A DNA stretch of 63,718 bases, the filler included, from Alphaproteobacteria bacterium (GTDB lineage Bacteria > Pseudomonadota > Alphaproteobacteria > Caedimonadales > UBA9215), in the NCBI GenBank assembly GCA_024280495.1. It is 5 parts of 5 records of this genome, joined end to end, with 100 filler letters (N's around TTAATTAATTAA, not from the genome) between each part and the next. Parts side by side here need not be neighbours in the genome. Positions count along the whole stretch, not along the records: positions 14,183 to 29,907 come from JAJRPZ010000028.1; 4 more parts are not named here. One strand, written 5' to 3'. Shown in pieces: positions 5,079 through 58,299 of the stretch. Under the pieces are notes generated by a model. It was given only the letters and a program-made list of their open reading frames with translations, did no database searches and was not told the origin of the DNA. Position 1 is the stretch's first letter. Each line of letters starts with the position of its first letter. Both the position numbers and the translations under genes were made by a program.

Positions 5079-5178
5079 NNNNNNNNNNNNNNNNNNNNNN
5101 NNNNNNNNNNNNNNNNNNNNNNTTAATTAATTAANNNNNNNNNNNNNNNNNNNNNNNNNNNNNNNNNNNNNNNNNNNN
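5079..5178. other. Artificial contig linker
   Basis: 44 N + TTAATTAATTAA (stops in all six frames) + 44 N. Confidence 0.98.
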
Positions 5179-11327: not shown

Positions 11328-11433
11328 TATAGTCATTACAAAAACATCTCAGACATCGTGAATCACTTCCGCGCCTATAATTCATAGGCGTTGGCCTCTC
11401 GCTCCGAGACTGGAACCTTTTTTAATGACTATA
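11328..11433 (+). mobile_element. ~107-bp palindromic miniature element, copy 2
   Basis: TATAGTCATTACAAAAA...CGCCTATAATTCATAGGCG...TTTTTTAATGACTATA. Confidence 0.9.
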
Positions 11434-11438: not shown

Positions 11439-13235
11439 CTATTTATTTTGATTTATTAAGTCTTCAGGAGGCAGTTTCACACGAATGTGAAGCTCTTCTA
11501 ATTGTGTCACGCTCACATCACTTGGTGCACTCATCATAAGATCTTCGGCCTTTTGATTCATGGGGAACGCGACAATTTCACGCAAATTAGGTTCATCTGC
11601 CAAAAGCATCACAATACGATCCACACCAGGAGCACTACCACCATGGGGCGGAGCACCAAATTTCAAAGCATTAATCATACCTGAAAATTCTTTTTCGACT
11701 TCTTCTTGCGTATAGCCAGCAATGGAGAAAGCTTTATACATCACCGTCGGCAAGTGATTCCGAATGGCGCCACTGGAAAGCTCTATACCATTACAAACGA
11801 TATCATATTGATAAGCCAAAATATCTAAAGGATCTTTGTTTTCCAAAGCTTCCAATCCACCTTGAGGCATGGAAAAAGGATTATGTGAGAAATCCATACA
11901 CTTACGATCTTCATCATATTCAAACATGGGAAAATCAACGACCCAACAGAACTTAAAGCAATTTTTTTCAATGAGGTCTAATTCTTCGGCAATACGAGTC
12001 CTAGCATGGCCCGAAAGTTTTGCTGCGCCATTTTCCTTGTCACACACAAAAAACACGGCATCCCCCTCTCCCATACCCGTGATTTCTTTAAGTTTTGCAA
12101 TACGGGCTTCATCGAGGAATTTCGCAATGGGGCCTTTGGCTTTACCATCAACGAATGTGATATACCCAATACCAGGTGCTCCTTCTTTCTGAGCCCATTT
12201 ATTCATTTTATCAAAAAAGCTACGGGGTTGTGCAGCAGCGCCCTTGGCTTGGATAGCACGAACAACGGATCCTTTCTTCAAAGCCTTTGCAAAAATTGAA
12301 AAATCCGATTCAGCAAAAACGTCCGCAACATCAAAAATCAAGAGAGGGTTACGAAGATCAGGTTTATCACTGCCGTAGGTTAGCATAGCTTCTGCATAAG
12401 GAATGCGCGGGAACGCTCCCTCAGTCACAGAACGGCCATTGGCAAATTCCTCAAACAGGCCGCGTAATACGGGCTCAATGATTTGAAAAACATCTTCTTG
12501 AGTAACATAAGCCATTTCAAAATCTAATTGATAAAATTCACCAGGTGACCTATCGGCACGGGCATCTTCATCACGAAAACAAGGCGCAATTTGAAAATAC
12601 TTATCAAATCCCCCCATCATGAGGAGTTGCTTGAACATTTGTGGAGCTTGGGGCAACGCATAAAACTTACCAGGATGAAGGCGGCTTGGAACCAAAAAGT
12701 CGCGTGCGCCCTCAGGTGAGCTAGCCGTCAAGATAGGTGTTTGAATTTCAAGGAAACCTTGATCCGTCATACGACGACGCATGGAACTAATAATATGAGA
12801 GCGCAACACAATGTTCTTGTGCATTTTTTCACGGCGTAAGTCCAAGAAACGGTAGCGTAACCGTGTATCTTCGGGGAAATCCTTATCGCTGTTAACCTGA
12901 ATAGGAAGCATATCAGCCGTTGATTCGATTTTTACACTCTCTACGGAAAGCTCAATTTCACCAGTTTCCATATCTTTATTAATAGTATCACTGCTACGTT
13001 TGACGACTTTACCAGTAATGGTCAAAACACTTTCGTATTTCGCACCTTCAGCAATTTTAAAGTCCATATCATCACAATTAACAACGCACTGCGTGATACC
13101 AAAGTGATCCCGAAGGTCAATGAACAGCAAATTACCATGGTCGCGTTTACGGTGAACCCAGCCACTGAGGCGAACGGTTTTTCCGTCATGAGAGACTCGA
13201 AGTTCAGAACAATTGTGAGTACGATACGGATGCAT
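11439..13235 (-). CDS. aspS: Aspartyl-tRNA synthetase
   Basis: [44 protein letters not shown]. Confidence 0.98.
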
Positions 13236-14082: not shown

Positions 14083-14182
14083 NNNNNNNNNNNNNNNNNN
14101 NNNNNNNNNNNNNNNNNNNNNNNNNNTTAATTAATTAANNNNNNNNNNNNNNNNNNNNNNNNNNNNNNNNNNNNNNNNNNNN
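14083..14182. other. Artificial contig linker
   Basis: 44 N + TTAATTAATTAA + 44 N. Confidence 0.98.
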
Positions 14183-14183
14183 A

Positions 14184-14681
14184 GCAAGGTTAGGAGCCAC
14201 CTTGACAGGTGTGGATGCAGGATCTGAAAATATTGAAGTTGCCAAAGCCCATGCACTGCAATCAGGTTTGGATATCAAATATCTCAACACCTCAAGTGAA
14301 GCTCTAGCAGCCAAAGGTGCAGAGTTCGATGTCATCATTGCCCTTGAAATTGTTGAGCATGTCGCTGACGTACCATTATTCCTGAAATCTTGCTCAGACC
14401 TCATAAAACCTGGGGGGATACTAATCATGAGCACTCTAAATCGCACGCTTAAATCCTATGCCCTTGGGATTTTAGCCGCAGAATATATCTTGAAGTGGGT
14501 CCCAAAGGGAACTCACCAATGGAAAAAATTTGTCGAACCCGCAGACCTTGTCAGGGGCCTTGAAAAACATAATGTCATAACCAAAAATATCAAGGGACTT
14601 AGTTTCAACCCCCTTAAACGCACTTGGGTCCTGGGGGATGATTTGGATGTAAATTATATGCTGAGTGCAAAGAAAAAATAG
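14184..14681 (+). CDS. ubiG: Ubiquinone biosynthesis O-methyltransferase, C-terminal fragment
   Basis: ARLGATLTGVDA, NIEVAKAHA, LEIVEHV, STLNRT, AEYILKWVPKGTH, DVNY. Confidence 0.93.
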   Translation, partial: ARLGATLTGVDAGSENIEVAKAHALQSGLDIKYLNTSSEALAAKGAEFDVIIALEIVEHVADVPLFLKSCSDLIKPGGILIMSTLNRTLKSYALGILAAEYILKWVPKGTHQWKKFVEPADLVRGLEKHNVITKNIKGLSFNPLKRTWVLGDDLDVNYMLSAKKK

Positions 14682-14687
14682 AGCTGA

Positions 14688-15269
14688 TTAGAAAAATATA
14701 TTTTTATGAACACCTTGGATTAGGCAAACGCGGGTGTTTCCATAGATGCGGTTAACTTTGATAAAAGGTTCTAATTTTATGGAAATGACATCGTCTTCTG
14801 CCATCTCTGCCACAATTAATGCCTTTTCATCAATCCAACCCTTTTGAGCCAAATACTCTGTTGAAAATTTTATAAGGCGCTTACCATAAGGGGGATCCAA
14901 AAACACAAGATCCATGGAGGAGGCTTGTTTTGGGGGACGCAACGCATCTAGACGCTGTAATTTTGTATTTTTAAGGCTGCACCCAAGATGCAATGCATTT
15001 TGCCTCAATATCCCAAAAGCCTTTGGATTTTGTTCAAAAAAAGTTACATGGCTTGCACCCCGTGAAAGAGCTTCAAGACCTAATGCACCAGATCCTGCAA
15101 AAGCATCTAGAACAAGCATTCCATCAAAAGATTTACCTTCATTGGCAAGGTCTACTTCTAAAAGATTAAACATAGACTCACGGACACGATCCGTTGTAGG
15201 TCTTGTAATACTTGCCGAAGGGGCTTCGATTTTGCGCCCTTTAAAGTGACCCGTGATCATACGCAACAT
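14688..15269 (-). CDS. rsmD: 16S rRNA m2G966 methyltransferase
   Basis: RPTTDRVRESMFN, FAGSGALGLEALSRGA, DPPY. Confidence 0.95.
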   Translation of the reverse strand: MLRMITGHFKGRKIEAPSASITRPTTDRVRESMFNLLEVDLANEGKSFDGMLVLDAFAGSGALGLEALSRGASHVTFFEQNPKAFGILRQNALHLGCSLKNTKLQRLDALRPPKQASSMDLVFLDPPYGKRLIKFSTEYLAQKGWIDEKALIVAEMAEDDVISIKLEPFIKVNRIYGNTRVCLIQGVHKNIFF

Positions 15270-16120
15270 TATAGAGTCCCTTCTTTTTCAGACAAATATA
15301 TTTTTGCAAGGCCCACAAATTGCTCACAAGATAATTCCTCTGCCCGCGCTGTTTCCTTGATCTTCATAGCCTCAAGAACTGAAACTGGATCAGAAAAAAG
15401 AGGTTGTAGAGTTTTACGCAGCATCTTACGACGTTGAGAAAATGCTTGCTTGGTCACGATTTTAACGGCTTTCCACAAATCATTTTTTGGATAAGAAAGT
15501 CTCGGCTTTAGCACAACAATGGCTGACGTTACTTTTGGGGCTGGTTTAAATGCTTCTGGTGGGACTTCAAAGGCAATTTTTGCTTCGTAACGTAGCTGAC
15601 AAAGAATGCTCAATCGTCCATAGGCTTTACATTGAGGAGAGGCGGTAAGTCGTAAGGCGACTTCTTTTTGAAACATCAAAACAAGACCCGTAATATCCTG
15701 AACACCTTCAACCCACGTCATGAGCAATTGCGTTGAAATATTGTAAGGCAAATTGGCAATGATTTTAAAAGGGCCAGGACCAATATCTAATAAAGGTGTT
15801 TTTAAAGCATCCGCCTCAAGAACTTTTAATTTATGATTAGAAGCCTTTGACAAAACAGAAAGGGCATCCAAACAACGTTGATCTTTTTCAAGAGCGATAA
15901 GATGTTTGGCCCCACATAACAAAATCCCTCGCGTCAGAGCACCTGGACCTGGTCCAATTTCGACAAGGGTCTCCGTATCGAGATACGGCAAACCCTGACG
16001 GGCAATTTTCTGGGTCAAATTTAAATCCAAAATAAAGTTTTGACCCAAGGATTTTTTTGCGCCTAGATCAAATTCTGCAATGGTTTCTGATATGGATTTC
16101 AGATTATGAAGATCAGTCAT
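15269..16120 (-). CDS. rsmA: 16S rRNA dimethyladenosine transferase (KsgA)
   Basis: KKSLGQNF, EIGPGPG, ANLPYNI, MFQKEVA. Confidence 0.97.
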   Translation of the reverse strand: MTDLHNLKSISETIAEFDLGAKKSLGQNFILDLNLTQKIARQGLPYLDTETLVEIGPGPGALTRGILLCGAKHLIALEKDQRCLDALSVLSKASNHKLKVLEADALKTPLLDIGPGPFKIIANLPYNISTQLLMTWVEGVQDITGLVLMFQKEVALRLTASPQCKAYGRLSILCQLRYEAKIAFEVPPEAFKPAPKVTSAIVVLKPRLSYPKNDLWKAVKIVTKQAFSQRRKMLRKTLQPLFSDPVSVLEAMKIKETARAEELSCEQFVGLAKIYLSEKEGTL

Positions 16121-17406
16121 TATCTGCGTTCAATGTGTGCAGAGGCCACTCTCGTCATTAATTCTTGCTGGGAAATATTTTGCAATTGTTTATCTAAGAG
16201 TTGAGCTTGAATGTCGTCACGATTAGGCGCTTTTGGATTACTTGTCTGACGATCACAAATAACAAAAAACAACGCTCCATTTCCTGTGTATACGGGTTTT
16301 GATGCACGATTTAAAGACGTTCCATTGATGATTTTTTTAAGGGCCGTATTCAGGTTTTGCAGAGGTACTTTTTTTACAAATTGAACGTGCCCTTTCTTTG
16401 ATTTCACGAGCCTTTCAACGGAACGGCAACTCCTTATTTGCTGAGCAATGGCAGCAACTTGCTTGATGTTATCTTCAATCTCAAAGGCAAAAGCATCCTC
16501 TGGATTCGCCACAAACACCTGTTTAAAGCTCACAGTCTTAGAAGGTTTTGAAAATTGGCCAGGGCTTAATTTATCACGAACAAAATACAAACGCACGGCT
16601 CCACGGGATTTGAAGGGGTTGGATATACCTCCCTCTTTCACATGAGCCAGTTCTTTTGCTTCTTCTGGCAGAAATTTCGACTGAGGAACCCAACCGATAT
16701 CACCACCGCGGGCGGCACTTGGCGCATTGGAAAACTGGCTGGCCAAGATGGAAAATTGCGCGCCTTTTTTAAGTTGATTTGCAATTTTTTGAGCCTGGCG
16801 CAATCGTTTTTCGGCTGTATTTTTGTGGTCAATGGGCAAAATAATTTCAGCCAAGTGATATCTTGTTTCAGTCAAAGACGATTTTAATTCATCCAAAGCA
16901 CGATCAATATCATCGGGGGTCACTCGAATTGAGTCCCCATAACGCGCTTTGATAAAATCATTCCAAATCAAAGAAGATTTAATATTTTGCTCCATCACAT
17001 AGTATGGAATCCCTTTTTTAGAAAGCATCTTTTTAAAGCCACCTTCAGCCATATTATTTAAATTTTCAATTTGACGAATGGAGGCCTGAACAGCTGTTTC
17101 TTCAACATCAATTTTGAACTCTTCAGTCAACTGAAGCTTAACAAGTTCTTGGATCAAGGTATCTAGAATTTGGGTACGTACTTGTTTAATATTTTCAGAA
17201 TTTATTGGCAAATTCATAGATATCAAGGCCAATTTAATACGATAATTCAGATCTTTTTCTGTAATAACCTTGTTATTCACCGTTGCTGCAATACGAGCAC
17301 TCGAATTTTTTGGAGATGATCTTTTTTGAGATGCGGCTGCATCCACTGGCACCAGTGCCCCACTAAATAATAAAGCAGCCATGAAAGCAAAAGAAAAACG
17401 AGTCAT
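16120..17406 (-). CDS. surA: SurA-family periplasmic chaperone/parvulin PPIase
   Basis: Signal peptide; IAATVNNKVIT; FSILASQFS..SAARGGDIGW; adjacent to rsmA. Confidence 0.88.
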   Translation of the reverse strand: MTRFSFAFMAALLFSGALVPVDAAASQKRSSPKNSSARIAATVNNKVITEKDLNYRIKLALISMNLPINSENIKQVRTQILDTLIQELVKLQLTEEFKIDVEETAVQASIRQIENLNNMAEGGFKKMLSKKGIPYYVMEQNIKSSLIWNDFIKARYGDSIRVTPDDIDRALDELKSSLTETRYHLAEIILPIDHKNTAEKRLRQAQKIANQLKKGAQFSILASQFSNAPSAARGGDIGWVPQSKFLPEEAKELAHVKEGGISNPFKSRGAVRLYFVRDKLSPGQFSKPSKTVSFKQVFVANPEDAFAFEIEDNIKQVAAIAQQIRSCRSVERLVKSKKGHVQFVKKVPLQNLNTALKKIINGTSLNRASKPVYTGNGALFFVICDRQTSNPKAPNRDDIQAQLLDKQLQNISQQELMTRVASAHIERR

Positions 17407-17553
17407 AAACTTAACCTTTTAAGAAATGATATTTATGGGTTAGTATGCTAAATAATTAGCTAACGGTGCCTATAAGAAAGCACATATTCACTCTATATGA
17501 CAAGTGTATTCCTGCTTTCAACTTTTTTTATTAATAAATTCAAAGATATACAA

Positions 17554-18705
17554 ATGATTCTTTTATTTAATCGCCTTGGTCGGTACATTTTTTTCCAAAA
17601 TATGCGCATGACCCTTTTGATTTCCAGTGTTCTTATTTCCGCCATATGGCTCACTCAATCTCTACGTTTCATTGATTATATCATGACCAAAGGCCTTTCT
17701 TTTGTCCTTTTTATTAAACTCTCAAGCTTTTTAATTCCAAGCCTTATAAGTACAATTTTTCCCATTGCCTTTTTTATTGCCTGCCTTTTTATCTTCAGCA
17801 AACTTTATAGTGATAATGAACTGGTTGTCATGCGCTCCCTTGGTCTTTCTAATTTTAAAATTATTAATCCTTTTTTAATGGGTGCCTTTTTTATAACCCT
17901 CATTTTATATGCCGTTAATTTTTATGTTCACCCCATGGCTAAAACAAATTTCAATGAGCTACGCAATGATATCCGTAATAACCTTTCAGGAAAGTGGATT
18001 CAGCCAGGAGTTTTTATAAACATTAACGGATTAACTTTCTATACAAAGCAAAAAACAAGTTCAGGAGACATGAAAGGCATTTTTTTCCATGATGCTAGGA
18101 ACCCAAAATCTGTTTCAACAATTACAGCCCAATTGGGACAAATTCAAGAAACAGCAAATGGCCTTAAATTTATTCTTTATCATGGCACCCGCCAGAGCAC
18201 TTCAAATAAAACACACAAACCTTCCATTTTGACCTTTGAGCGATATAGTGTTGATGTGGAAAATGTTCAGCCTCAAAAAAAACGTAGGAAAGATGCCAAT
18301 GAACTTTCCATGGCTGAGCTTTTTAAGTACCAGGGCTCGTCCCCCCACCAACAAGAAAATCAAAAACGCCGCCGCATCGAAGCCCATGAACGCATCTTAT
18401 TACCTTTAGTCGTTTTCCCTTTTGCCCTTCTGGCGGGCTTGGTTTTTTTATTAGGAGACTATAATAGACGAGGGAAAACACAGCGCCTTGCCATTGGTAT
18501 TTCAGGAGCGCTTATTATTGAAGTTGGTCTTTTTTTCTGCATCAATCTATTTCAACGTTATGAATCTATGATTTATGTTGCTTATACAACTCTTTTAAGC
18601 TTAAATTTTTTGTTTTTGTGGTTCCTTTTAAAATCCCCTCGAAAAACAAATTCTAGACAAAAACCAGATCAAGCTCCCCAACAACAAGAAGGAGAAGCAT
18701 CATGA
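17554..18705 (+). CDS. lptF: LPS export ABC transporter permease LptF
   Basis: WLTQSLRF, DNELVVMRSLGLS, 3+3 TM layout; start chosen at ATG 17554. Confidence 0.9.
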   Translation: MILLFNRLGRYIFFQNMRMTLLISSVLISAIWLTQSLRFIDYIMTKGLSFVLFIKLSSFLIPSLISTIFPIAFFIACLFIFSKLYSDNELVVMRSLGLSNFKIINPFLMGAFFITLILYAVNFYVHPMAKTNFNELRNDIRNNLSGKWIQPGVFININGLTFYTKQKTSSGDMKGIFFHDARNPKSVSTITAQLGQIQETANGLKFILYHGTRQSTSNKTHKPSILTFERYSVDVENVQPQKKRRKDANELSMAELFKYQGSSPHQQENQKRRRIEAHERILLPLVVFPFALLAGLVFLLGDYNRRGKTQRLAIGISGALIIEVGLFFCINLFQRYESMIYVAYTTLLSLNFLFLWFLLKSPRKTNSRQKPDQAPQQQEGEAS

Positions 18706-19796
18706 GGTTGAGCTACTCACTTTCGAAATATCTATTCAAAACTTTTTTAAAATGGTCCCTTGTTACCTCTCTTGTTTTTACTGCTATTTATATTTTATTT
18801 GATGTTATAGAGCTGCTACGTCGGGTTTCCTCCCTTGACTCCATCCCTAATTTTTTTATTTTAAAGATGGTGATGTATCGCTTTCCCATGTTTTTTCAGG
18901 AAATCCTTCCCTTTATTCTCTTTTTTGCATCGATCATTACCTTTTGGCAGTTGAATAGAAATAGTGAAATTTTAAGCATTCGTGCAGCAGGTGTTTCCAT
19001 ATGGCAAATATTATTACCCCTTGTTAGCGGCACTTTATTGTTAGGTCTTGTGGATTTGCTGATTGTTAATAGTTTTTCTTCGGTTTTAATGGGTAAATAT
19101 TATAATCTGGAACGTACTTATATTTACAAATCCTCAGCACCTTTTTCTATTTCAAAATCAGGGTTATGGCTCCGAGAAACCATCGAGGGAAAACAAATCA
19201 TTATGAACGCTAAAAGATATGATGATAAAAACGAAGTCTTCCATAAATTTACGGCTTATGTTTTCGATAAAAACGATCAGTTTCTCGAGCGATTTGGGTC
19301 TCAAAAAGCTATTTTACGAGATCAAAAATTACACCTTAAAAAGGGATGGCATATTGAAAATGGGGGATTTCCAGAATCATTTAAGGATAAAGTCATGCCC
19401 ACTGGTTTTTCAAAAAAAAATATAAAAGCTTCTTTTTCGGATCCTAAGACATTAAATTTTTATACATTACGGTCCTATGCAAACCTTATGGAAACATCAG
19501 GACTTTCATCTACCCCCTATTACATGCAATGGCATATTCTTTTATCCAGGTGTTTTTGGTTGAGTATTATGGTTCTACTGGCCGCTACTTTTTCTCTTTC
19601 TCAAACCAGGAATGGCAAGGGAAGTATTATGATTATTTCGGGAGTAGCCTTCACCTTTTTGCTATATTTTTTAAAAGATGTAACTTTTTCCTTGGGGGGT
19701 GCTGGTAAGTTCCCGCCTTTTCTGGCAGCATGGGTACCAGTTATTGTGACGGCCTTTTTTGCCGCAACCAGACTTTTATATTCCGAAGATGGATAA
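18702..19796 (+). CDS. lptG: LPS export ABC transporter permease LptG
   Basis: SEILSIRAAGVSIWQ, SGLWLRE, LAAWVP, C-terminal EDG; ATGA overlap with lptF. Confidence 0.92.
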   Translation: MRLSYSLSKYLFKTFLKWSLVTSLVFTAIYILFDVIELLRRVSSLDSIPNFFILKMVMYRFPMFFQEILPFILFFASIITFWQLNRNSEILSIRAAGVSIWQILLPLVSGTLLLGLVDLLIVNSFSSVLMGKYYNLERTYIYKSSAPFSISKSGLWLRETIEGKQIIMNAKRYDDKNEVFHKFTAYVFDKNDQFLERFGSQKAILRDQKLHLKKGWHIENGGFPESFKDKVMPTGFSKKNIKASFSDPKTLNFYTLRSYANLMETSGLSSTPYYMQWHILLSRCFWLSIMVLLAATFSLSQTRNGKGSIMIISGVAFTFLLYFLKDVTFSLGGAGKFPPFLAAWVPVIVTAFFAATRLLYSEDG

Positions 19797-19803
19797 AACT
19801 TTC

Positions 19804-22230
19804 ATGCGCACTTCTACAGTCATTCCAGAAACATCCCAGACGTCGTCAATCACTCCCGCACCTATAAGTTATAGGCGTTGGTCCCTAGCTCCTAGACTGG
19901 AACCTTTTTGGAAAGACTATATACAAATTCTTTTGACCCTTTTCATCCTTATCTCACGTTCTTATGGTGACGCCCAAGTTCTCTTGGATACGAAAGAAAT
20001 AAATTTGGAACAACTCGATGCAACTGGCATTACGGACCCATATCCTCCAAAATCTAATTCCTTTCGGGAAAAGAATGTTCGTACTTTTTTAGATGCAGAT
20101 CATCTCAATTATAACAAAAAACAAAAAATAATAACGGCATTTGGCAATGTACGTGTATCTAGAGGTGACATAACTTTATTGGCCGACAAAGTCATCTATA
20201 ATCAAAGGGTAGATAAAATAAATGCCCACGGGAATGTGCGTATTTTAGATTCTCAAAAAAACATTCTTTTTGCCCAAGAATTTGAAATTGATGGTGATAT
20301 GAAAAAAGGATTTACCAATACTGTACAAGGTATTTTGGCCGACAATTCTGTATTCGCTGCCAATGGTATTCAACGAAATTCAGAATCTGAAAGTCAATTT
20401 AATCAAGTAACTTATACCCCTTGTTCACTATGTCGATCTGATCCCTCGAAACATCCCACTTGGGCCATTCAATCACGTCATATGCTCATCAACCATGAAG
20501 AAGGTGATATTGAACATACTGATTCTTTTTTGCAAATCAATGGCACACGAGTTTTATATATCCCGTATCTTTCCCATCCTGGCCCCCATGTTAAAAGGCG
20601 ATCTGGATTTTTATCACCTTTTTTTGGCGGGTCTGAAAACCTTGGCGCTATCCTAGGTTTTTCTTATTATTGGGCCATTAATAATCAGAGCGATGTCACA
20701 TTCACGCCTATTTATACCCGTGAAAACCCTTTATTAGTCACTACTTATCGACATGCTTTTTGTAATGGCGCCATTGAAATTGAAACAAGCATTACCAAGG
20801 GAAAGTTCAAAAGTGGACCCGCAGAAAGTGAGAGAAATCGAAACCGTCTGCGCGGACACATTAAAACATCGGGGCGTCTTTCCGTTCCAGTTTCTTTCTT
20901 CGATGGGTCCTATTTTGGTTTTAATATCCACCGTACTTTAGACGGTACTTACCTCAAACGTTACACCATGTTGGGTTATGCCAAAGAAAGCTACCTTACG
21001 TCCAGGCTTTATTATGAAGGATTTAGAGATCGCAGTTATTTCCTCGCAGAAGGTTTTTCTTTTCAAGGTTTACAGCAAGATGATCGTAATAAACGTATTC
21101 CTTTTATTGCACCCAGCATAGAATATCACTATCTTTCAAAACCTATGGCTTATCAATTCACACCTTATGTAGATACATCTATTTTAAATATCCAAAGGCG
21201 CCAAGGACAAAACACCAAGCGTTTTTCCACAACTTTTGGTATCAAGCGTCAATGGATTAGTAATTTTGGGACAGTTTCTGATATAGGGGCAGAAGCTAAA
21301 ATTGATGCCTATGGAGTTTCGGCTTCTCGTAACCCCAAAACAAATGGGAACAATGCACGTATAACCCCACGCCTTTTTGCCCATATAAAATACCCTCTCT
21401 ATCAAGTGACTTCTTATGGCCGTTTTGTTCTAGAACCTATTGTTGGCATCGTTATCACTTCTAATAATCGCAATACAAATCGCTTTCCCGATGAAGACTC
21501 TTTCATTGAAATGAGTGATGCGAATATTTTCGATGCTGATCGATTTTCAGGGCTGGATATCGTCGATCAATGGTCCAGGGTCAATTATGGTGCAAAGCTT
21601 TCCTTTTATTCTAAATCCCTTGGGAACTCAGAACTTTTCCTTGGCCAATCCATTGCCTTAACGTCAGTGAATCCTCTGGTAAATCACAACCTCGAAGTTG
21701 CTGGTGTGCGCCCAGGTACCTCTGATTTTGTGGTGCGAGCTCATTATACTTATAAAGACTGGGTTCACTTTGCCTCCCGCATGGTTTTGAATAGAGATAG
21801 AATTTCCGCCAAACGAAATGAAACTCAACTCTCCATCGGTCAAAAACAATTACGCTTTAAGATTGGGTATGTCCGCATCCCAAAACCTATCCTTATTACT
21901 CCCGCATTATCAAGCTTTTCAAGGCTCAGTAGCCTTAAAAGCATAGAGCAAATCAAGTATGGAGTTTCAACACAACTGAACAAAACATGGCGTTTATCTT
22001 TTCATGCAGCAAGAGAGTTAGGCAGTGGTGGTGGGGCTCTCTCCCACGGTGCGACATTAACCTACAGCGATGATTGTTTTGATTTTTCAACGACTCTCAC
22101 AAAAACATTTTATCAAGATCGAGACTTTAAACCAGGTTTAACAACCATGTTCCGTATTTCCTTTAAAAACCTTGGTGAGGTGAGCATCAGCGGCGATCGC
22201 CTCGGGTTGGGTAAATCTTTAAAAGAATAA
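19804..22230 (+). CDS. lptD: LPS-assembly outer membrane protein LptD, with in-frame repeat insertion at N-terminus
   Basis: AFGNV, YTPCSLC, RRSGFL, DADRFSGLD, YSDDCF; follows lptFG; ATG 19804 lies 7 nt after the lptG stop. Confidence 0.92.
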   Translation: MRTSTVIPETSQTSSITPAPISYRRWSLAPRLEPFWKDYIQILLTLFILISRSYGDAQVLLDTKEINLEQLDATGITDPYPPKSNSFREKNVRTFLDADHLNYNKKQKIITAFGNVRVSRGDITLLADKVIYNQRVDKINAHGNVRILDSQKNILFAQEFEIDGDMKKGFTNTVQGILADNSVFAANGIQRNSESESQFNQVTYTPCSLCRSDPSKHPTWAIQSRHMLINHEEGDIEHTDSFLQINGTRVLYIPYLSHPGPHVKRRSGFLSPFFGGSENLGAILGFSYYWAINNQSDVTFTPIYTRENPLLVTTYRHAFCNGAIEIETSITKGKFKSGPAESERNRNRLRGHIKTSGRLSVPVSFFDGSYFGFNIHRTLDGTYLKRYTMLGYAKESYLTSRLYYEGFRDRSYFLAEGFSFQGLQQDDRNKRIPFIAPSIEYHYLSKPMAYQFTPYVDTSILNIQRRQGQNTKRFSTTFGIKRQWISNFGTVSDIGAEAKIDAYGVSASRNPKTNGNNARITPRLFAHIKYPLYQVTSYGRFVLEPIVGIVITSNNRNTNRFPDEDSFIEMSDANIFDADRFSGLDIVDQWSRVNYGAKLSFYSKSLGNSELFLGQSIALTSVNPLVNHNLEVAGVRPGTSDFVVRAHYTYKDWVHFASRMVLNRDRISAKRNETQLSIGQKQLRFKIGYVRIPKPILITPALSSFSRLSSLKSIEQIKYGVSTQLNKTWRLSFHAARELGSGGGALSHGATLTYSDDCFDFSTTLTKTFYQDRDFKPGLTTMFRISFKNLGEVSISGDRLGLGKSLKE
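19815..19921 (+). mobile_element. ~107-bp palindromic miniature element, copy 3, inside the lptD reading frame
   Basis: TACAGTCATTCCAGAAACATCCCAGACGTCGTCAATCACTCCCGCACCTATAAGTTATAGGCGTTGG...TTTTTGGAAAGACTATA; nearly identical to copy 4. Confidence 0.93.
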
Positions 22231-22326
22231 GAAGGCACTGTTTTTTTTGAAAAATGGAGAGCTCTTCCTATTTTGGCTCTAATAGGGTATTAAGTAATAA
22301 GTTTCTGTAGTTTAATTTTTTTAAAA

Positions 22327-25023
22327 ATGGCCCCCATGCTCGATAAAATTTACACCCCACAAGACATTGAATCCAAACTCTATAATGCCTGGGAAAAATC
22401 TGGTGCTTTTGAAGCCTCAACTCATCCTCACACGGATCCCAAAAAGAATTTCTGCATTATGATGCCCCCACCAAATGTGACGGGAAACCTTCATATGGGA
22501 CATGCATTGAATTATACCCTTCAGGATATTTTGGTTCGATATCATCGCATGCGTGGCTTTACAACATTGTGGCAACCAGGAACGGACCATGCAGGCATTG
22601 CAACTCAAATGATCGTAGAGCGCCAAATCGCAGCAGAAGGTAAAACCACAAGACTCGAAATGGGTCGTGAAAAATTTCTTGAGCGGGTTTGGGCTTGGAA
22701 AGAAGAGTCTGGTGGTGCCATTGTAAATCAACAAAGACGTCTTGGTGTGACCCCAGATTGGAAACGTCAGCGCTTTACCATGGATAAGGGATTAAGCACT
22801 TCTGTGCGTAAGATTTTCGTAGAAATGCATAAAGACGGTCTTATTTATCGCAATAAGCGCCTTGTGAATTGGGATCCTAAATTATTAACGGCCGTATCTG
22901 ACCTCGAAGTTGATAATATCGATAAATCAGGCAACCTTTGGTATATAAAATATGATCTTGAGGGCACTCCTGGTCAAAAAAATACTAAAACAATTACCGT
23001 TGCTACAACGCGCCCCGAAACTCTTTTTGGTGATACGGGTATTGCTGTGCATCCCGAAGATGATCGCTATAAAGATCTTATTGGTAAGCGCGCCCTTGTC
23101 CCTTTCTTAAATCGCTCCATTCCCATTGTAGCCGACGAACATTCAGATCCTGAAAAAGGAACAGGAGCCGTTAAAATCACTCCAGCCCATGATTTTAATG
23201 ACTTTGAAGTTGGGAGTCGTCATAACCTCGAGCAAATCACCATTCTTGATGAGACGGCCCATTTACTTGCCGAATGTGTTCCTCAGGATTATGCGGGCCT
23301 TGACTGTTTTGCGGCACGTAAAAAAATTGTGAGTGACCTTGAAAGTGCGAGGAGAATTGAAAAAGTTGAGAAAACCATCCATGCCGTACCCCACGGTGAA
23401 CGATCTGGAGTTATTCTTGAGCCTCGCCTGACGGATCAATGGTTTTTGCATGCGGATAGATTGGCAAAAGAAGCCCTTGATGCAGCCCATGATGGCAGAA
23501 CAAAAATAATGCCTGAAAGCGGTTTAAATACATACAATCACTGGATGAAAAATATTCAGCCCTGGTGTATTTCCAGGCAATTATGGTGGGGTCATCAAAT
23601 CCCTGCTTGGTACGGTCCAGATGGTGAAATTTTTGTGGCTGAAACCGAGAGCGAAGCCTTGGATCAAGCTAAATCTCATTATAAAAAAGATGTTGATTTA
23701 CGTCAAGAAACCGACGTTCTCGATACGTGGTTTTCATCTGCTCTCTGGCCTTTTTCAACTTTGGGGTGGCCTAAAAACACCGAAGACCTTAAGAAATTTT
23801 ACCCAACCGCTTGCTTGATCACTGCTGGCGATATTCTTTTTTTCTGGGTGGCGCGCATGATGATGGTAGGACTTTATGTTTTCAAAGACGTTCCTTTCAA
23901 GGATGTTTTTCTTCATTCCTTAGTTCGTGATTCCAAAGGCCAAAAAATGTCTAAAACCAAAGGAAACGTCATCAATCCTTTGGACGTCATGGATAAATAT
24001 GGTGCCGATGCCTTGCGCTATACCATGGCTTCTTTTTCAGCACCAGGTCGGGATATTAAATATGCCGATTCCCTAGTGGAAACCAATCGAAATTTTGCAA
24101 CCAAATTATGGAATGCAGCTCGCTTTCTTGATGCCAATGGCGTCACTTTTATCCATGATTTTGATCCTAAAAAAGTAACCCTTGATATTAATAAATGGAT
24201 TATTTCAGAATTTATTGATTGCCTCGAAAAAGTAGAAGATGCCGTTGCTCGCTATCGTTTTAATGATATGTCTTCGGTTATTTACCATTTTGCTTGGGGG
24301 GCTTTTTGCGATTGGTATATTGAATTTTCAAAACCAATTTTGTTCGAGGGATCTCCAGAAGATCAACAAGAAACAAAAGAAACTCTTGGTTGGGTATTGG
24401 GACAAATCCTTCACATACTGAACCCTATAATGCCCTTTATCACCGAAGAACTCTGGCAGAACCTTGCCCCTAAAAAAGGGCAACTTATTACGTCTGCCTG
24501 GCCTCTTTTAGATGATGATTCTGCTAAAACTTCTTTAAAAGACCCTGTCTCACAAGACCGTTTAAACTGGGTTATTGATCTTGTGACAACCATTCGCTCT
24601 ACTCGAAATGATGTGAACGTGCCTGCTGGCGCAAAAATACCAGCAATATTAGTCCTTGAATCACAAGACCTTAAAGACGCTGCCCATGATCTTGGGGCAC
24701 TTATTTGCAGGCTTGCACGCCTTGACTCTCTCACCCTTCAAGATAATGCGCCACAGGGTACTGGTATTGTACAAGCAGTTCTAAAAGACACCACCGCTTA
24801 CCTTGCCATCTCAAATGTTATTGATATTGATGCTGAAAAGGCTCGATTATTAAAAAATCTCCAGAGAACTGAAAAGGAAATCAATATTTTAGAGAAGAAA
24901 CTGTCAAATAAAAAATTTACAGATAAGGCTCCAGTTGAAATAATCGCTACAAATAAAAAAAGGCTAGAGGAAGAAGAATCAATAAAAAGCAAAATAAATA
25001 TAGCAATAAAACGTTTAACATAA
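22327..25023 (+). CDS. valS: Valyl-tRNA synthetase
   Basis: PPPNVTGNLHMGH, DHAGIATQ, WCISRQLWWGH, KMSKT. Confidence 0.98.
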   Translation: MAPMLDKIYTPQDIESKLYNAWEKSGAFEASTHPHTDPKKNFCIMMPPPNVTGNLHMGHALNYTLQDILVRYHRMRGFTTLWQPGTDHAGIATQMIVERQIAAEGKTTRLEMGREKFLERVWAWKEESGGAIVNQQRRLGVTPDWKRQRFTMDKGLSTSVRKIFVEMHKDGLIYRNKRLVNWDPKLLTAVSDLEVDNIDKSGNLWYIKYDLEGTPGQKNTKTITVATTRPETLFGDTGIAVHPEDDRYKDLIGKRALVPFLNRSIPIVADEHSDPEKGTGAVKITPAHDFNDFEVGSRHNLEQITILDETAHLLAECVPQDYAGLDCFAARKKIVSDLESARRIEKVEKTIHAVPHGERSGVILEPRLTDQWFLHADRLAKEALDAAHDGRTKIMPESGLNTYNHWMKNIQPWCISRQLWWGHQIPAWYGPDGEIFVAETESEALDQAKSHYKKDVDLRQETDVLDTWFSSALWPFSTLGWPKNTEDLKKFYPTACLITAGDILFFWVARMMMVGLYVFKDVPFKDVFLHSLVRDSKGQKMSKTKGNVINPLDVMDKYGADALRYTMASFSAPGRDIKYADSLVETNRNFATKLWNAARFLDANGVTFIHDFDPKKVTLDINKWIISEFIDCLEKVEDAVARYRFNDMSSVIYHFAWGAFCDWYIEFSKPILFEGSPEDQQETKETLGWVLGQILHILNPIMPFITEELWQNLAPKKGQLITSAWPLLDDDSAKTSLKDPVSQDRLNWVIDLVTTIRSTRNDVNVPAGAKIPAILVLESQDLKDAAHDLGALICRLARLDSLTLQDNAPQGTGIVQAVLKDTTAYLAISNVIDIDAEKARLLKNLQRTEKEINILEKKLSNKKFTDKAPVEIIATNKKRLEEEESIKSKINIAIKRLT

Positions 25024-25159
25024 AAGAGGTTAAGGATAGTTAACTCCTCAAAAAACTTGACCTCTTGATCTATTTTGCTATAGATAATACAGTTGTTCTT
25101 AAATAATTTAAAAATAACCGCAGTAATAAAAGAAACAATAAAATGAGTGTAGGTTTTAA

Positions 25160-25816
25160 ATGGCAGAAGTAATTATCAATGGTCCCGAAGGTCGCATCGA
25201 AGCAAAATATCACCATGCCAAGACAAACGCGCCCGTGGCAGTGATTCTGCACCCTCACCCCGAAGAGGGCGGCACCATGAATGATAAAATCACCTATGCT
25301 CTTTATCGTACTTTTATTCAAAATGGTTATAACACATTGCGTTTTAATTTCCGAGGTGTTGGAAAGTCCGAAGGGGTTTTTGACGAAGGTGAAGGAGAAC
25401 TCAGTGATGCAGCAGCCGTTCTTGATTGGGTTCAAGCCCACAACCCCAATGCCCCTAAGTCCTGGGTTGGTGGTTATTCTTTTGGTGCTTGGATTGCAAT
25501 GCAACTCTTGATGCGTCGCCCAGAATTAGATGGATTTGTGGCTGTGAATCCTCCATCCCACAATAAAGATTTCACTTTTCTAGCTCCGTGCCCTGTTTCA
25601 GGTATTTTCATACAATCAAATGATGATGAAATTGGTGATCCTGAAACTGTAACGAAACTGGCCAAAACTCTAACGGCTCAGCGCAATATCTATATTACAG
25701 AAAAACGAATCATTGGGGCGGATTATAAATTTACTGACAAGATGAAACCATTAATGGACGCCACTCAAAAATATCTTAAATCAGGTCATCAAGAAGCTCT
25801 GTTAAAGAGCGCTTAA
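25160..25816 (+). CDS. Conserved alpha/beta hydrolase
   Basis: GPEGRIE, LHPHP..GGTM, RFNFRGVG.S.G, GYSFG. Confidence 0.9.
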   Translation: MAEVIINGPEGRIEAKYHHAKTNAPVAVILHPHPEEGGTMNDKITYALYRTFIQNGYNTLRFNFRGVGKSEGVFDEGEGELSDAAAVLDWVQAHNPNAPKSWVGGYSFGAWIAMQLLMRRPELDGFVAVNPPSHNKDFTFLAPCPVSGIFIQSNDDEIGDPETVTKLAKTLTAQRNIYITEKRIIGADYKFTDKMKPLMDATQKYLKSGHQEALLKSA

Positions 25817-25877
25817 CTCATCTTTATACACAGAGTTAGAACCATTAAACTTTCAATTTTCGATGACCACTGAGACG

Positions 25878-26690
25878 TTATAATAAGTCCCGTGGGTCAA
25901 AATTCATGCGAATTTCTTTCCATATTTTATATTTGTTGGGAGGGAGTTTTAACGGTTTAAATTTAAATTCATTCACAGCCCTCAAAGCACTTTCCGCTAA
26001 CAAACGATATCCTGGGTCTGAGCTTAATGAAGAGTTCAAAAGGCTCGCACTGCGCACGGTACGATTTGGATTCATTATAATTCTAATGGAAATAGAACGC
26101 TGATGGGCCCCTTGTGCCCCTGCAGGCAAACGCCAAACAGATTCAATTTGTTTGCGTACTATGTCCAACTCACTTACGGCTAAATGATCGCTTTGTATTC
26201 CGCCTTTCCCCCCATTTGTCGCAGTATTTTTTGTCAGGTTTTTTAAGAGCGCATCAAAATCCCGGGGTTTCTTTTTAATTTTTTTTTGAGGTTTTTTCTG
26301 AGGTTTTACAGTTAGCGGTGGCTTGGGCTTGGATTTTGGTAATTCAGTCATTTTAAGGGGAAGCGTTAGCTCTTCCACTTTTTTTTCTTGAGGCGGTTCT
26401 TTTAGATCTATTGGTTCAGGGAGAGTTTCCGTGACTTTTTTTTCAAAAATAGGATCAGTTTTTATTTTTTTTGGGGAAGACCTTTTTTTTTCTTTTACGG
26501 GAGGAGTTGGATCAGTGGACTGAGAAATATTATCGATTTCCACAACTAACTCTACGGGCAATGGTTGAGTTATATCAACAACATCAGTTTGATAATTTAG
26601 GAAACCAAAAACAGCAGATGCCAATACAATAACATGAAGACTCACCGATAAAATTGCAGAGCGTCTGAATATGTTTTGCGATGCATCCAT
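25878..26690 (-). CDS. tolA: TolA/TonB-like protein
   Basis: TM segment with SVSLH, Pro/Lys-rich linker, C-terminal AESALRAV...FDP; follows tolQR. Confidence 0.8.
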   Translation of the reverse strand: MDASQNIFRRSAILSVSLHVIVLASAVFGFLNYQTDVVDITQPLPVELVVEIDNISQSTDPTPPVKEKKRSSPKKIKTDPIFEKKVTETLPEPIDLKEPPQEKKVEELTLPLKMTELPKSKPKPPLTVKPQKKPQKKIKKKPRDFDALLKNLTKNTATNGGKGGIQSDHLAVSELDIVRKQIESVWRLPAGAQGAHQRSISIRIIMNPNRTVRSASLLNSSLSSDPGYRLLAESALRAVNEFKFKPLKLPPNKYKIWKEIRMNFDPRDLL

Positions 26691-26692
26691 AT

Positions 26693-27136
26693 TTAAGTAG
26701 CCTTTTTAGGAAGCTCTGCCAACAACGCGACCTTATGAAATCCATTGCTATTCAAGAGACCCATAAGTGCCATCACTTTTCCGTAAGCAAGTCCTTGGTC
26801 ACCGCGTACATAAATTTTTGCACGGGGACGTGCCGCCATAATACCTTTGAGTTTTTCTGCCAAAGATCCCATATCAATTTTGGTATCTTGTAAATAAAGG
26901 TCGCCGTCACCATTCAATGAAAGGGTTACGGGATCCCCTTTATCTGGGAGGGATGCTGCTTTTGTTTTCGGTAAATCAATGGGTACCCCCACCGTTAACA
27001 TGGGTGCTGTGAGCATAAAAATAACCAATAAAACCAGCATGACATCAACAAAAGGGGTGACATTAATATCACTCATAGGTGCGCGTTTTGTGCGCCTCTT
27101 CCTTCTTAACGAGCTATTTTGAAAAACGGCTGCCAT
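26693..27136 (-). CDS. tolR: TolR
   Basis: [21 protein letters not shown]...YGKV. Confidence 0.93.
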
Positions 27137-27921
27137 TACGCTATTTCCCTTTCCGATGCTTTTCTTGAAAGAATAGTCGAAAACTCATCGCAAAAGGCCT
27201 CAAGGCGACTATTATATTTATTGATATCAGAGGAAATTTTGTTATATCCCAAAACTGCAGGAATTGCGGCAATTAAGCCTATGGCCGTTGCAAATAGCGC
27301 CTCTGCAATACCAGGCGCCACGACGGCAAGGTTGGTGGACCCAGACAAGGCAATACCTTGAAAACTATTCATAATTCCCCATACCGTACCAAAAAGACCA
27401 ATGAATGGAGCCGTTGACCCAACGCTGGCCAAAAAAATCATATAACTCTCCAAGCGATCCATTTCACGAGACATAACCATGCCCATTAATCGCGCAACGC
27501 GGTCCTGAAGTGCGGGACCTTGACCAGAAGAAAGGGCCTTTGGGTTTCTCGTCCATTCGCCCATACCAACGGTTAAAAGAGTTTTGAGAGGGTGATTTTT
27601 TTCTTTTTTAATGATCATAGAAACGTCCGTTAATGATTTTCCTGACCAAAACACATCTTCAAAGGAAGTTGCTAACTTATTCAGAGAGCGCAACTGAGAT
27701 GTCTTTGCAAATATCAAGGCCCATGACCAAATAGAGGCGAGCAACAATGAAATCATAACACTTTGCACGACCCAATCAGCCCCCATGAAGAGGTCCAAAG
27801 CATTAACAGAAAAATTTTGAACGGATTCCCCTATATTTTGTTCTGTCACATGGGCCATAGTGGCAGCAGCATCATTTAAGGTTATCTCAGCAGATAAATT
27901 TTCAACGGTTGTCTTTGTCAT
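27136..27921 (-). CDS. tolQ: TolQ
   Basis: SIWSW, FEDVFWSG, PFIGLFGTVWGIM, VAPGIAEAL. Confidence 0.95.
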   Translation of the reverse strand: MTKTTVENLSAEITLNDAAATMAHVTEQNIGESVQNFSVNALDLFMGADWVVQSVMISLLLASIWSWALIFAKTSQLRSLNKLATSFEDVFWSGKSLTDVSMIIKKEKNHPLKTLLTVGMGEWTRNPKALSSGQGPALQDRVARLMGMVMSREMDRLESYMIFLASVGSTAPFIGLFGTVWGIMNSFQGIALSGSTNLAVVAPGIAEALFATAIGLIAAIPAVLGYNKISSDINKYNSRLEAFCDEFSTILSRKASEREIA

Positions 27922-28046
27922 GGTTTTTTTTCCAAGTGTAGGGGAAATCCCAAAATTTGATTTATATAAATTAGAATAAGTTTAGCAGAGGAAAATGAAA
28001 TTTGCGACTGGTATATAGCCATTTCGAAAAGCATTCAATGGTTTTT

Positions 28047-29231
28047 TTAACAATTTATTCCAGCTGAAAATCCTGAAGACCAGGCCCATTGGAAATTATA
28101 ACCGCCAAGCCAGCCCGTAACATCAACCACTTCCCCAATGAAGTGAAGGCCAGGTACTTTTTTGCAAACCATTGTTTTTGAGGACAGTTCATTAGTATCT
28201 ATGCCACCAACGGTCACCTCGGCCTTCTGATATCCTGCACTTCCTGCTATGTTTACCTTGAAATTATGAATAAATTCTGCAATTTCCAGCAAGTGTTCTT
28301 TTTTAAGGTCGGTAATGCTTTGATGATACTCAGGCGTTATTGAAATTTTTTCAACAAAACGGTTGGTGAGGTGATTCTTGAGATAATTTGTTGGTGTTTG
28401 CTTATTGTTTTTATGAAGGATAAATTCTTTAGCTAAGTCAATATCAGGAAGTAAATTTATGGAAATTTCCTTATCATCAAAACTTTCCAGGTAAGAAGAT
28501 ATTTGAAGAATCGCTGGTCCGCTCAAACCTTTATGAGTAAAAAGTATATTTTCACGAAATTTTGTTTTTTTATAAGTCACGAGAGAATCATTGGAAAGGC
28601 CACTGAGTGAGGAAAAAAAGGGCTTATCTTGTTCAGATACAAAAAGAGGCACTAGAGCAGGTCGAGGAGGGATAATATTCAATCCAAATTTTTCAGCAAC
28701 ACGGTAACCAAAGTCTGTGGCACCAATTTTAGGAATGGCTAAACCACCGCTCGCGATAATCAAAGAGTTACTTTTGTAAATAGTTGAGTCGGTATTTAAT
28801 TCAAAACACTCTTTTTTTGACACCTCAGTGATGTGACAATTTAACTTTATGTCAACATGATTTTTTTGACATAAATCTAGGAGCATTTGAATGATTTGTT
28901 TGGCTGAACCATCACAAAACAACTGCCCCAATTTTTTTTCGTGGTAGTTAATGTTATGTGACTCAATGAGTTTTATAAAGTCGTGTTGCGTGAAACCAGC
29001 GAGAGCAGATTTCATAAAATGGGGATTCTGAGAGATAAAATTTTGAGGGGAAGCGTATAAATTTGTAAAATTACATCGGCCACCACCAGAAATTCTTATC
29101 TTTTCACCAATTTTATCTGTGTGTTCAATGAGAAGAACTTTCAATCCCCTAGAACCAGCTTGAATGGCAGCCATAAGTCCCGCTGCACCTGCACCAATAA
29201 TAACCACATCATATTTACGGGTTGTTTTCAT
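28047..29231 (-). CDS. NAD(P)/FAD-dependent oxidoreductase, HI0933/YhiN family
   Basis: GAGAAG, ISGGGRCNFTN, FTHKGLSGP, GWLGGYNFQWAWSSG. Confidence 0.93.
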   Translation of the reverse strand: MKTTRKYDVVIIGAGAAGLMAAIQAGSRGLKVLLIEHTDKIGEKIRISGGGRCNFTNLYASPQNFISQNPHFMKSALAGFTQHDFIKLIESHNINYHEKKLGQLFCDGSAKQIIQMLLDLCQKNHVDIKLNCHITEVSKKECFELNTDSTIYKSNSLIIASGGLAIPKIGATDFGYRVAEKFGLNIIPPRPALVPLFVSEQDKPFFSSLSGLSNDSLVTYKKTKFRENILFTHKGLSGPAILQISSYLESFDDKEISINLLPDIDLAKEFILHKNNKQTPTNYLKNHLTNRFVEKISITPEYHQSITDLKKEHLLEIAEFIHNFKVNIAGSAGYQKAEVTVGGIDTNELSSKTMVCKKVPGLHFIGEVVDVTGWLGGYNFQWAWSSGFSAGINC

Positions 29232-29907: not shown

Positions 29908-30007
29908 NNNNNNNNNNNNNNNNNNNNNNNNNNNNNNNNNNNNNNNNNNNNTTAATTAATTAANNNNNNNNNNNNNNNNNNNNNNNNNNNNNNNNNNNNN
30001 NNNNNNN
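29908..30007. other. Artificial contig linker
   Basis: 44 N + TTAATTAATTAA + 44 N. Confidence 0.98.
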
Positions 30008-33129: not shown

Positions 33130-33229
33130 NNNNNNNNNNNNNNNNNNNNNNNNNNNNNNNNNNNNNNNNNNNNTTAATTAATTAANNNNNNNNNNNNNNN
33201 NNNNNNNNNNNNNNNNNNNNNNNNNNNNN
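33130..33229. other. Artificial contig linker
   Basis: 44 N + TTAATTAATTAA + 44 N. Confidence 0.98.
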
Positions 33230-38845: not shown

Positions 38846-38952
38846 TATAGTCATTCCAAAAACATCCAAGACGTCGTCAATCACTCCCGCGTCTATAAGT
38901 TATAGGCGTTGGTCCCTCGCTCCTAGACAGGAACTTTTTTGGAAAGACTATA
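38846..38952 (+). mobile_element. ~107-bp palindromic miniature element, copy 4
   Basis: TATAGTCATTCCAAAAA...TTTTTGGAAAGACTATA between convergent genes. Confidence 0.93.
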
Positions 38953-58191: not shown

Positions 58192-58299
58192 TATAGTCGT
58201 TTCAAAAAGGTTCCAGACATAGTCAATCAGTCCCGCGCCTATAATTTATAAGCGTTGGTCCCTCGCTCCTAGAGAGGAATCTTTTTTGGAATGACTATA
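58192..58299 (+). mobile_element. ~107-bp palindromic miniature element, copy 6
   Basis: TATAGTCGTTTCAAAAAGGTTCCAGAC...TTTTTTGGAATGACTATA between murA and the DUF2948 gene. Confidence 0.92.

Follow-up and report, generated by a model that had tools for sequence, protein, structure and literature searches.

An IS630-derived miniature element lies in frame between the start codon and the signal-peptide core of lptD in an alphaproteobacterial draft genome

In the draft genome of an alphaproteobacterium (GenBank assembly GCA_024280495.1, here G000), the lptD gene carries, between its start codon and the hydrophobic core of its signal peptide, an in-frame copy of a dispersed 107-bp repeat, which its termini identify as a miniature inverted-repeat transposable element (MITE) derived from an IS630-family insertion sequence (IS). 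The stretch of DNA analysed, referred to here as the window, comprises 63,718 nucleotides and consists of five contigs (C49-C53) from this 1.14-Mb genome, which is 39.5% GC, 89% complete and divided into 99 contigs; lptD lies within a single contig of 15,725 bp, C51 (window 14183-29907). The element occupies the corresponding position, in the same frame, in the signal peptides of two further exported proteins. The preferred explanation, held to be moderately probable, is that translation would run from 19804 through the element and that the presequence as a whole would then be cleaved off, making the insertion nearly neutral.

The lptD locus and its element copy

Within contig C51 the gene order is lptF (17497-18705), lptG (18702-19796) and lptD (19804-22230), followed by a long open reading frame (ORF) from 22327. 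Seven nucleotides separate the end of the lptG TAA stop from the lptD ATG, and the element begins 18 nt past that stop. lptD forms one ORF of 808 aa, stop-free through the element, whose product is identified as LptD by an LptD_N domain (PF03968, residues 97-169, E 2.6e-07), a barrel domain (LptD, PF04453, residues 368-729, E 5.6e-33) and the lptF-lptG synteny that it shares with its relatives. LptD is regarded as essential, and with lptF, lptG and lpxC all intact in G000, and the ORF and both Pfam domains preserved, the protein is probably needed by this cell.

At the start of lptD, ATG (19804-19806) and CGC ACT TC are followed by the element, TACAGTC...GACTATA, and then by TACAAATT, so that the original n-region (MRTS) is separated from the original h- and c-regions (IQILLTLFILISRSYG). 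An earlier interpretation made from the DNA alone (the sequence-only reading) had described a stop-free 107-bp repeat with TA at both ends at 19815-19921, near the lptD start, and its coordinates and inserted residues proved exact; the same arithmetic was also recovered, the net insertion being 105 bp, or 35 codons, when one of the two TAs is assigned to the target. With nhmmer the copy scores 116.5 bits, second among the family's matches across the genome; it shares 95.3% identity with the consensus of 22 copies and carries private substitutions.

The ancestry of the start codon was addressed by comparing nine lptD loci, namely those of G000, four same-genus genomes, one same-family genome and three same-order genomes. 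lptG lies directly upstream at all nine, and the first lptD start falls no more than 16 nt after the lptG stop or, in one case, just before it; the start context CTTTCATG in G000 corresponds to TTTTCATG in G003. LptD is present in 29 of 31 genomes, and the same-genus proteins are 52-54% identical to that of G000 from residue 80-89 onward. The alignment of relatives that the sequence-only reading had proposed finds the element peptide absent from all 19 relatives' LptD N-termini inspected. Because lptD starts beside the lptG stop at all nine loci and the N-termini of relatives are free of the element, ATG 19804 is, on this comparison, the ancestral lptD start; the insertion is likewise, on the aligned N-termini, specific to this lineage. 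For an empty site in a close strain, a homologue search with residues 1-260 returned the protein itself and one homologue (P0002) only, and a locus search gave one unrelated locus in genome contigs and none in metagenome contigs; the available LptD orthologues are all distant, at 52-54% identity.

The signal peptides of LptD in relatives are ordinary, with 21 residues in G002 and 33 in G001, G003 and G004. In P0002, which is 50% identical over residues 1-260, the presequence has about 41 residues, and its ..SSYGFA followed by DSQVLMD aligns with ..SRSYG followed by DAQVLLD here. Presequences of relatives thus range from about 21 to about 41 residues, so that the length of the n-region was already variable. 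In G000 the cleavage site was read by eye and Sec signal-peptide features were judged by simple rules only, by which cleavage after G55 is likely: the Kyte-Doolittle maximum over nine residues is 3.42 at residues 42-50, residues 1-40 of the predicted presequence have a net charge of +2, and S-Y-G, which puts small residues at -3 and -1, precedes D56, in agreement with the rules for Sec type I signals. The sequence-only reading had itself raised the objection of a start downstream of the element; the stretch from the element to the cleavage site contains neither ATG nor GTG, and the in-frame canonical starts after 19804 are TTG 19933, which leaves a 12-residue presequence, and TTG 19984, past the cleavage site. 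The element-coded YRRWS was considered as a twin-arginine translocation (Tat) motif and rejected, since the h-region follows only 16 residues later; as a beta-barrel protein, LptD is moreover expected to use Sec, which also counts against Tat.

Parentage, spread and recurrence of the repeat family

Repeat search and alignment place five full direct copies and one partial inverted copy of the repeat in the window. When the five were turned into an nhmmer profile and run against the whole genome, 75 rows resulted; merged, these represent 57 distinct loci, of which 22 carry a full-length element. A consensus of those 22 copies spans 107 bp, starts with TATAGTCATTCCAAAAA and ends with TTTTTGGAATGACTATA; its left end reads TATAGTC where the lptD copy has TACAGTC. 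The sequence-only reading had called the repeat palindromic, a term that here covers a terminal inverted repeat of about 16-27 nt, forming an outer stem, and a central 10-bp hairpin. Compensatory change was seen in only 2 of 29 pairs among seven copies, which makes no case for a selected RNA structure, and Rfam gave no match at E <= 1 in window 19700-20050. A peptide profile from four sequences found no credible relative among 1.84 billion representatives, its three matches at E <= 0.001 being, by inspection, unrelated tandem-repeat proteins. At least two contigs break within copies of the repeat (the start of C84 and the end of C69). At two other loci in G000, C27:14326-14528 and C68:20122-20328, left and right element halves stand about 100 bp apart, which suggests a second insertion inside the copy or an internal rearrangement.

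The parentage of the family is evident from its ends. PF13358, the DDE_3 domain of IS630-type transposases, occurs in G000 and all four same-genus genomes, and G003 carries a 910-bp IS (L044:1052-1961) with both inverted repeats and with helix-turn-helix and DDE_3 ORFs of 131 and 210 aa (PF13358 at 110 bits). The ends of the element profile match this IS at L044:1052-1076 and 1937-1961, with E 0.0008-0.21 in a small search; the IS reads TATAGTTCTTCCAAAAAGGTTCCG ... CGGAACCTTTTTGGAACGACTATA at its ends. A truncated IS in contig C36 of G000 ends in the same 17-23 nt as the element. The element itself is 107 bp long and has terminal inverted repeats, many dispersed copies and no transposase gene, since none of its six consensus frames, when translated, could encode a transposase. 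Because its ends match those of an IS that carries DDE_3 ORFs, the element is, by the resemblance of its termini, a MITE derived from an IS630-family insertion sequence. IS630-family elements duplicate TA, and TA starts and ends most full copies as well as the G003 IS; by these ends, the insertion in lptD may have duplicated its TA target.

In BLAST searches of 31 genomes the MITE was found in four (G000, G002, G003 and G004), all of one genus, with full or near-full copies at 71-82% identity in the three same-genus relatives; G001 and the 26 more distant genomes gave no match. IS630-family remnants in G000 lie at C36:~12155-12892 and C37:~20544-21212, with truncated or interrupted frames (179 aa, and 234 aa with a TGA). 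As the transposase frames of G000 are all truncated or interrupted, the MITE may have lost its mobility there.

The consensus is stop-free in one of its six frames (IVIPKTSQTSSITPAPISYRRWSLAPRLEPFWNDY), and this is the frame read in lptD. Stop-to-stop frames of at least 100 aa span the element at five of the 57 loci, in contigs C51 (lptD), C84, C61, C49 and C16, always in that same element frame, and no copy lies in mid-gene among the 57 loci. A scan of the assembly for further in-frame copies, another check suggested earlier, thereby yielded two more exported proteins: in lptD, C84 and C61 alike, the element sits between n-region and h-region, in the same frame, and adds 23-35 residues.

In C84 (1-94) the element runs into the h-region IFLLFCFFICPLCKA, followed by AQIPE.., of a 641-codon TonB-dependent receptor with Pfam Plug (E 2e-18, residues 64-160) and barrel (E 2.2e-21) matches. 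The first in-frame ATG, GTG or TTG of this gene is codon 94, inside the Plug match, and the orthologue, found in one of five genomes (G002, 38% identity), starts with MRLLSFFFLLITLVKA. Judged from its codons, the C84 receptor would have a signal peptide if translation enters through the element and cannot otherwise. In C61 the 70-bp left part of the element (7380-7449) stands between MIRKN and IMFFLVAFSFSILKA, followed by REL.., in a 162-codon exported protein whose ATG is preceded by AAGGAA. Its orthologues, found in five of five genomes, start with M/V-R/Q-K.. (MRK.. or VQK..) and continue directly into the h-region, without the element; the truncated copy in C61 is nevertheless in frame, which had a one-in-three chance.

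The spanning ORFs of C49 and C16 also carry the element near the 5' end and were set aside as in-frame cases. The C49 ORF (2558-4042, minus strand, 494 codons) was counted as intergenic: its 5' end is inflated by read-through of a partial MITE and overlaps the upstream gene 3987-4709, and the likely true start is an ATG on the downstream side of the element, preceded by GAGGG; the protein is AAA+ ATPase-like, with a GPPGCGKTT Walker A motif. C16:2226-2606 (plus strand), considered as a fourth N-terminal case, was left uncounted as a degenerate piece with no homologue in five relatives. The N-terminus of this 126-codon orphan ORF (..IVNQSPKMSSIISASIRYRR) resembles a decayed in-frame element piece and precedes a hydrophobic stretch; the ORF may have originated as a gene around the repeat, or may not be genuine. 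In C7, the longest-ORF start of a membrane-protein-like gene (14802-15614, minus strand) falls inside an antisense element copy (GTG .. GMTI, then MLNL..), whose nearest outside ATG is the more probable place of initiation.

Across the genome, the family is found chiefly behind genes. Under a crude gene model (ORFs of at least 90 aa, chosen greedily; 1,010 genes, 88.6% coding), a gene 3' end lies within 20 nt of, or inside, the element at 38 of the 57 loci, and a gene stop lies inside it at nine; in C61, 30 nt separate the copy from the stop of the gene before it. Four genes end in the same element-coded tail and a fifth in a tail from another element frame (Table 1), and from these shared tails, which fit such an event, we infer MITE insertion into the TA of TAA or TAG stop codons. 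The position in lptD can be understood in the same terms, because the family settles behind stops and because in packed operons that zone is the signal peptide of the next gene.

The five contigs of the window are stitched together by artificial linkers, so gene order across the linkers is meaningless; the top repeat family (D1) and the 100% "inverted repeats" returned by the window repeat search were these linkers and were rejected as not biological.

Table 1. Coordinates of the features discussed; positions without a contig prefix count along the window.
Feature	Coordinates	Strand	Evidence
Ancestral lptD start codon and codons 2-4 (MRTS), original n-region	19804..19814	+	Start position at 9/9 loci; context CTTTCATG matches TTTTCATG in G003
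MITE copy, 107 bp, in frame, 35 extra codons (TVIPETSQTSSITPAPISYRRWSLAPRLEPFWKDY)	19815..19921	+	nhmmer 116.5 bits
Left terminal inverted repeat, outer stem arm	19816..19831	+	RNAalifold pairs columns 2-17 with 93-108; matches terminal inverted repeat of IS630-family IS at L044:1052-1076
Central hairpin of element	19855..19881	+	RNAalifold pairs 41-52 with 57-68; also in single-sequence fold
Right terminal inverted repeat, outer stem arm	19905..19920	+	Fold; matches right terminal inverted repeat of IS at L044:1937-1961 and truncated-IS end in G000 C36
Predicted signal-peptide h-region (IQILLTLFILI) and c-region (SRSYG)	19921..19968	+	Hydropathy; alignment with P0002 and relatives' signal peptides
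Predicted mature LptD (LptD_N and beta-barrel domains)	19969..22230	+	Pfam; 52-54% identical to same-genus LptD from residue ~80 on
lptG, 364 aa	18702..19796	+	Pfam LptF_LptG E 1.6e-63; C-terminal coding sequence and stop conserved in relatives
Partial MITE copy, profile positions 2-69, near AAA+ ATPase-like gene (contig C49)	3916..3983	-	nhmmer
MITE copy, intergenic	11328..11433	+	Repeat search, alignment, nhmmer
MITE copy 2 nt past stop of ORF 37260-38843, open in the element frame of lptD	38846..38952	+	Repeat search, alignment
MITE copy directly after TGA stop of ORF 49103-50500	50501..50607	+	Repeat search, alignment
MITE copy, intergenic	58192..58299	+	Repeat search, alignment, nhmmer
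Genes ending in element-coded YS[H/R]SKKVPV, then stop	C4:702-1970; C36:20044-20610; C73:7859-8683; C68:8708-9667	-; -; +; +
Gene ending in 19-residue tail from another element frame	C27:25290-25928	+
Artificial linkers N44-TTAATTAATTAA-N44 between contigs	5079-5178; 14083-14182; 29908-30007; 33130-33229

Translation through the element and its alternatives

In the explanation preferred here, an IS630-family MITE would have transposed, at some point in the ancestry of G000, into a TA at codon 4 or 5 of lptD, and its entry in its sole stop-free frame, with a net gain of 105 bp, would have left the gene intact. Ribosomes would initiate at the ancestral ATG 19804, probably coupled to termination of lptG, and read through the element to produce a 55-residue Sec signal peptide in which the n-region grows from about 4 residues to about 39, with a net charge of +2, while the h- and c-regions are unchanged. 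Signal peptidase would then remove the entire presequence, leaving mature LptD unaltered. That the insertion lies inside the signal peptide and is tolerated through cleavage had already been proposed by the sequence-only reading, and the proposal is supported as far as sequence evidence reaches; its further suggestion that a separate repeat family generates new protein sequence stands in so far as such a family is read in frame, and gives way where the new residues would belong to a discarded presequence rather than to mature LptD.

Several lines of evidence favour translation through the element: the ancestral ATG is kept beside the lptG stop, which allows coupling; no usable start lies between element and cleavage site; the extended n-region has a net charge of +2 and the h-region is untouched; the TonB-dependent receptor offers no other canonical start; LptD is probably needed, given intact lptF, lptG and lpxC; and all the insertions observed fall where the product would be removed. 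In addition, Sec presequences of at least 50 residues exist in autotransporters (PMC2805444).

A number of points, however, weigh against this explanation. The lptD frame is still open in about 10 of the 22 full-length copies, most of them intergenic, and an open frame is expected of a young near-consensus copy, translated or not, so that openness alone is not evidence of selection or translation; the agreement of all in-frame cases in one open frame is also partly a matter of ascertainment, the cases having been found via open frames. The C84 gene lacks its 5' end, its contig beginning inside the element, and C61 is a weaker case because an ATG directly follows the element. In lptD itself, GGAAAG (19910-19915), which lies within the right terminal inverted repeat and had been named by the sequence-only reading as a possible ribosome-binding site, stands 5, 11 and 17 nt before ATA, ATT and TTG, where weak initiation is possible. 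A fold of 131 nt, with its hairpin starting 14 nt after the lptD ATG, reaches -28.2 kcal/mol (z -2.42), and this hairpin could hamper initiation or invite RNase cleavage. Furthermore, ordinary Sec substrates seldom have an n-region of 39 residues, and the junction between lptD and the element rests on one draft assembly of 99 contigs and 89% completeness.

These points feed into several alternatives. If the element lay in a 5' leader, lptD would start at ATA 19921, ATT 19927 or TTG 19933 using GGAAAG as a Shine-Dalgarno-like site, and the upstream ATG would then be a relic, as would the open frame, which is expected of a young copy anyway; the C84 copy has GGAGTG in the same place, followed by ATT, and the ATG after the element in C61 fits as well. 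Such a start is nevertheless unlikely, given that it would leave presequences of 16, 14 or 12 residues with no positive residue before the h-region, against 21-41 residues with K or R in relatives, that ATA and ATT are very poor bacterial initiators, that the 17-nt spacing to TTG is too long, and that the TonB-dependent receptor offers no ATG, GTG or TTG before codon 94. It is more doubtful still that the insertion disabled or strongly weakened lptD, leaving a gene that decays in a reduced genome and whose intact frame merely reflects a recent event. The small genome (1.14 Mb) with its 57 element copies, the probable youth of a copy 95.3% identical to consensus and the stable hairpin beside the start codon would accord with decay, a notion to which little credence is given in view of the 808-codon frame without stop or frameshift, the good scores of both Pfam domains, a lipopolysaccharide pathway that looks functional, with lptF, lptG and lpxC intact, and two other intact exported-protein genes arranged in the same way.

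Co-option of the element, whereby the hairpin or the positively charged peptide (YRRWS) would exert shared translation or export control over three envelope proteins, is regarded as improbable. Its attraction lies in the shared place and frame of the element in three envelope-protein genes, in the invariance of R21, R22, W23 and S24 among four aligned translated copies, and in the three carrier relatives, where the element-frame peptide gives 31 matches, most with stops and none in an open frame above 78 aa. Intergenic copies, however, encode the same residues, so the conservation is that of the DNA consensus; the paucity of compensatory pairs, the many copies that simply follow stop codons, and export as the sole functional link among the three genes likewise speak against it. 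Equally improbable is the bolder form of this idea, in which a MITE subfamily would have found, or been retained in, a niche at the boundary of n- and h-regions as a domesticated "signal-peptide cassette" that couples the translation or export routing of several envelope proteins including LptD; its single open frame may, on that reading, encode a proline-, serine- and threonine-rich, net-positive stretch accepted by the export machinery. An assembly artefact, with the repeat misplaced or misjoined in a short-read draft, is scarcely credible: at least two of the 99 contigs break inside copies of the repeat, and a search of sequencing runs gave two, with small shares of the sequence, and no RNA run, the contigs of the two (80% likeness) covering 19818-19921 only, with the repeat in other contexts and no lptG or lptD flank, so that neither run contains the junction, but both flanks have the neighbours expected from relatives (the lptG end and lptD start on one side, the lptD h-region on the other), the copy has private substitutions, and the contig ends are 5.6 kb and 10 kb away from the junctions.

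Related systems and significance

RUP of Streptococcus pneumoniae, reportedly linked by Oggioni and Claverys in 1999 to IS630-Spn1, is said to be an element of about 107 bp with a TA target and IS630 parentage. The present family would resemble it as a non-autonomous IS630-family derivative of about 107 bp with TA ends and many dispersed copies, and would differ from it, RUP reportedly being extragenic, in that some copies would be translated or alter gene ends.

The sequence-only reading had likened the repeat to Rickettsia palindromic elements, whose in-frame fusions with host genes are well documented (Ogata et al. 2000, via the review PMC10969869). The likeness stands in that a short palindromic mobile repeat with one conserved open frame inserts in frame and adds tens of residues without gene breakage, whereas "IS630-derived MITE" is the more fitting description of the present element: its ends are of IS630 type and the genus has a cognate IS, it measures 107 bp rather than the roughly 150 bp given in that review, and its in-frame copies are all N-terminal, before the hydrophobic signal core and not in mature domains.

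In Yersinia, the predicted signal peptide of YPO1552, 41 residues long, takes its residues 1-30 from RU-2/YPAL (Delihas 2007, PMC2759123; review PMC2229807), so that there, too, the open frame of a MITE makes up part of a predicted Sec signal peptide. In that case the start and N-terminal part of an orphan, putatively exported protein come from the repeat, whereas the element described here is wedged between the conserved ancestral start and the original h-region of the conserved LptD, and the arrangement recurs in two further genes of the same genome. In Coxiella burnetii, QMITE1/2 overlap gene 3' ends, donate a few C-terminal residues and a stop, and make occasional in-frame insertions, according to PMC5896051, in which the term "signal peptide" occurs 0 times; the four genes ending in YS[H/R]SKKVPV are comparable, although the element family is different. 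The extended signal peptides of autotransporters, Sec presequences of at least 50 residues with an N-terminal extension before a classical n/h/c signal, indicate that such lengths can be exported, and their extension is a conserved inherited motif (PMC2805444), in contrast to the recent mobile-element insertion in lptD. 

Among open-access papers and bioRxiv preprints, no report was found of a repeat inside the LptD signal peptide or of recurrent signal-peptide insertions. The principle that an in-frame MITE insertion is tolerated in a dispensable segment is known, and the present case is a clean, recurrent example of it and not a new mechanism; what it adds is the genus-restricted IS630-derived family, the insertion between the LptD start and its h-region, and the two further exported proteins in the same genome.

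Start-codon and signal-peptide predictions near such repeats can be misled, and repeats inserted at stop codons alter C-termini, as in the four genes that share a tail, both of which call for caution in annotation. The three independent natural insertions also provide a ready test of how much n-region length bacterial Sec signals tolerate. The case shows where selfish DNA can persist inside the genes of a very compact genome, namely in a part of the protein that is discarded.

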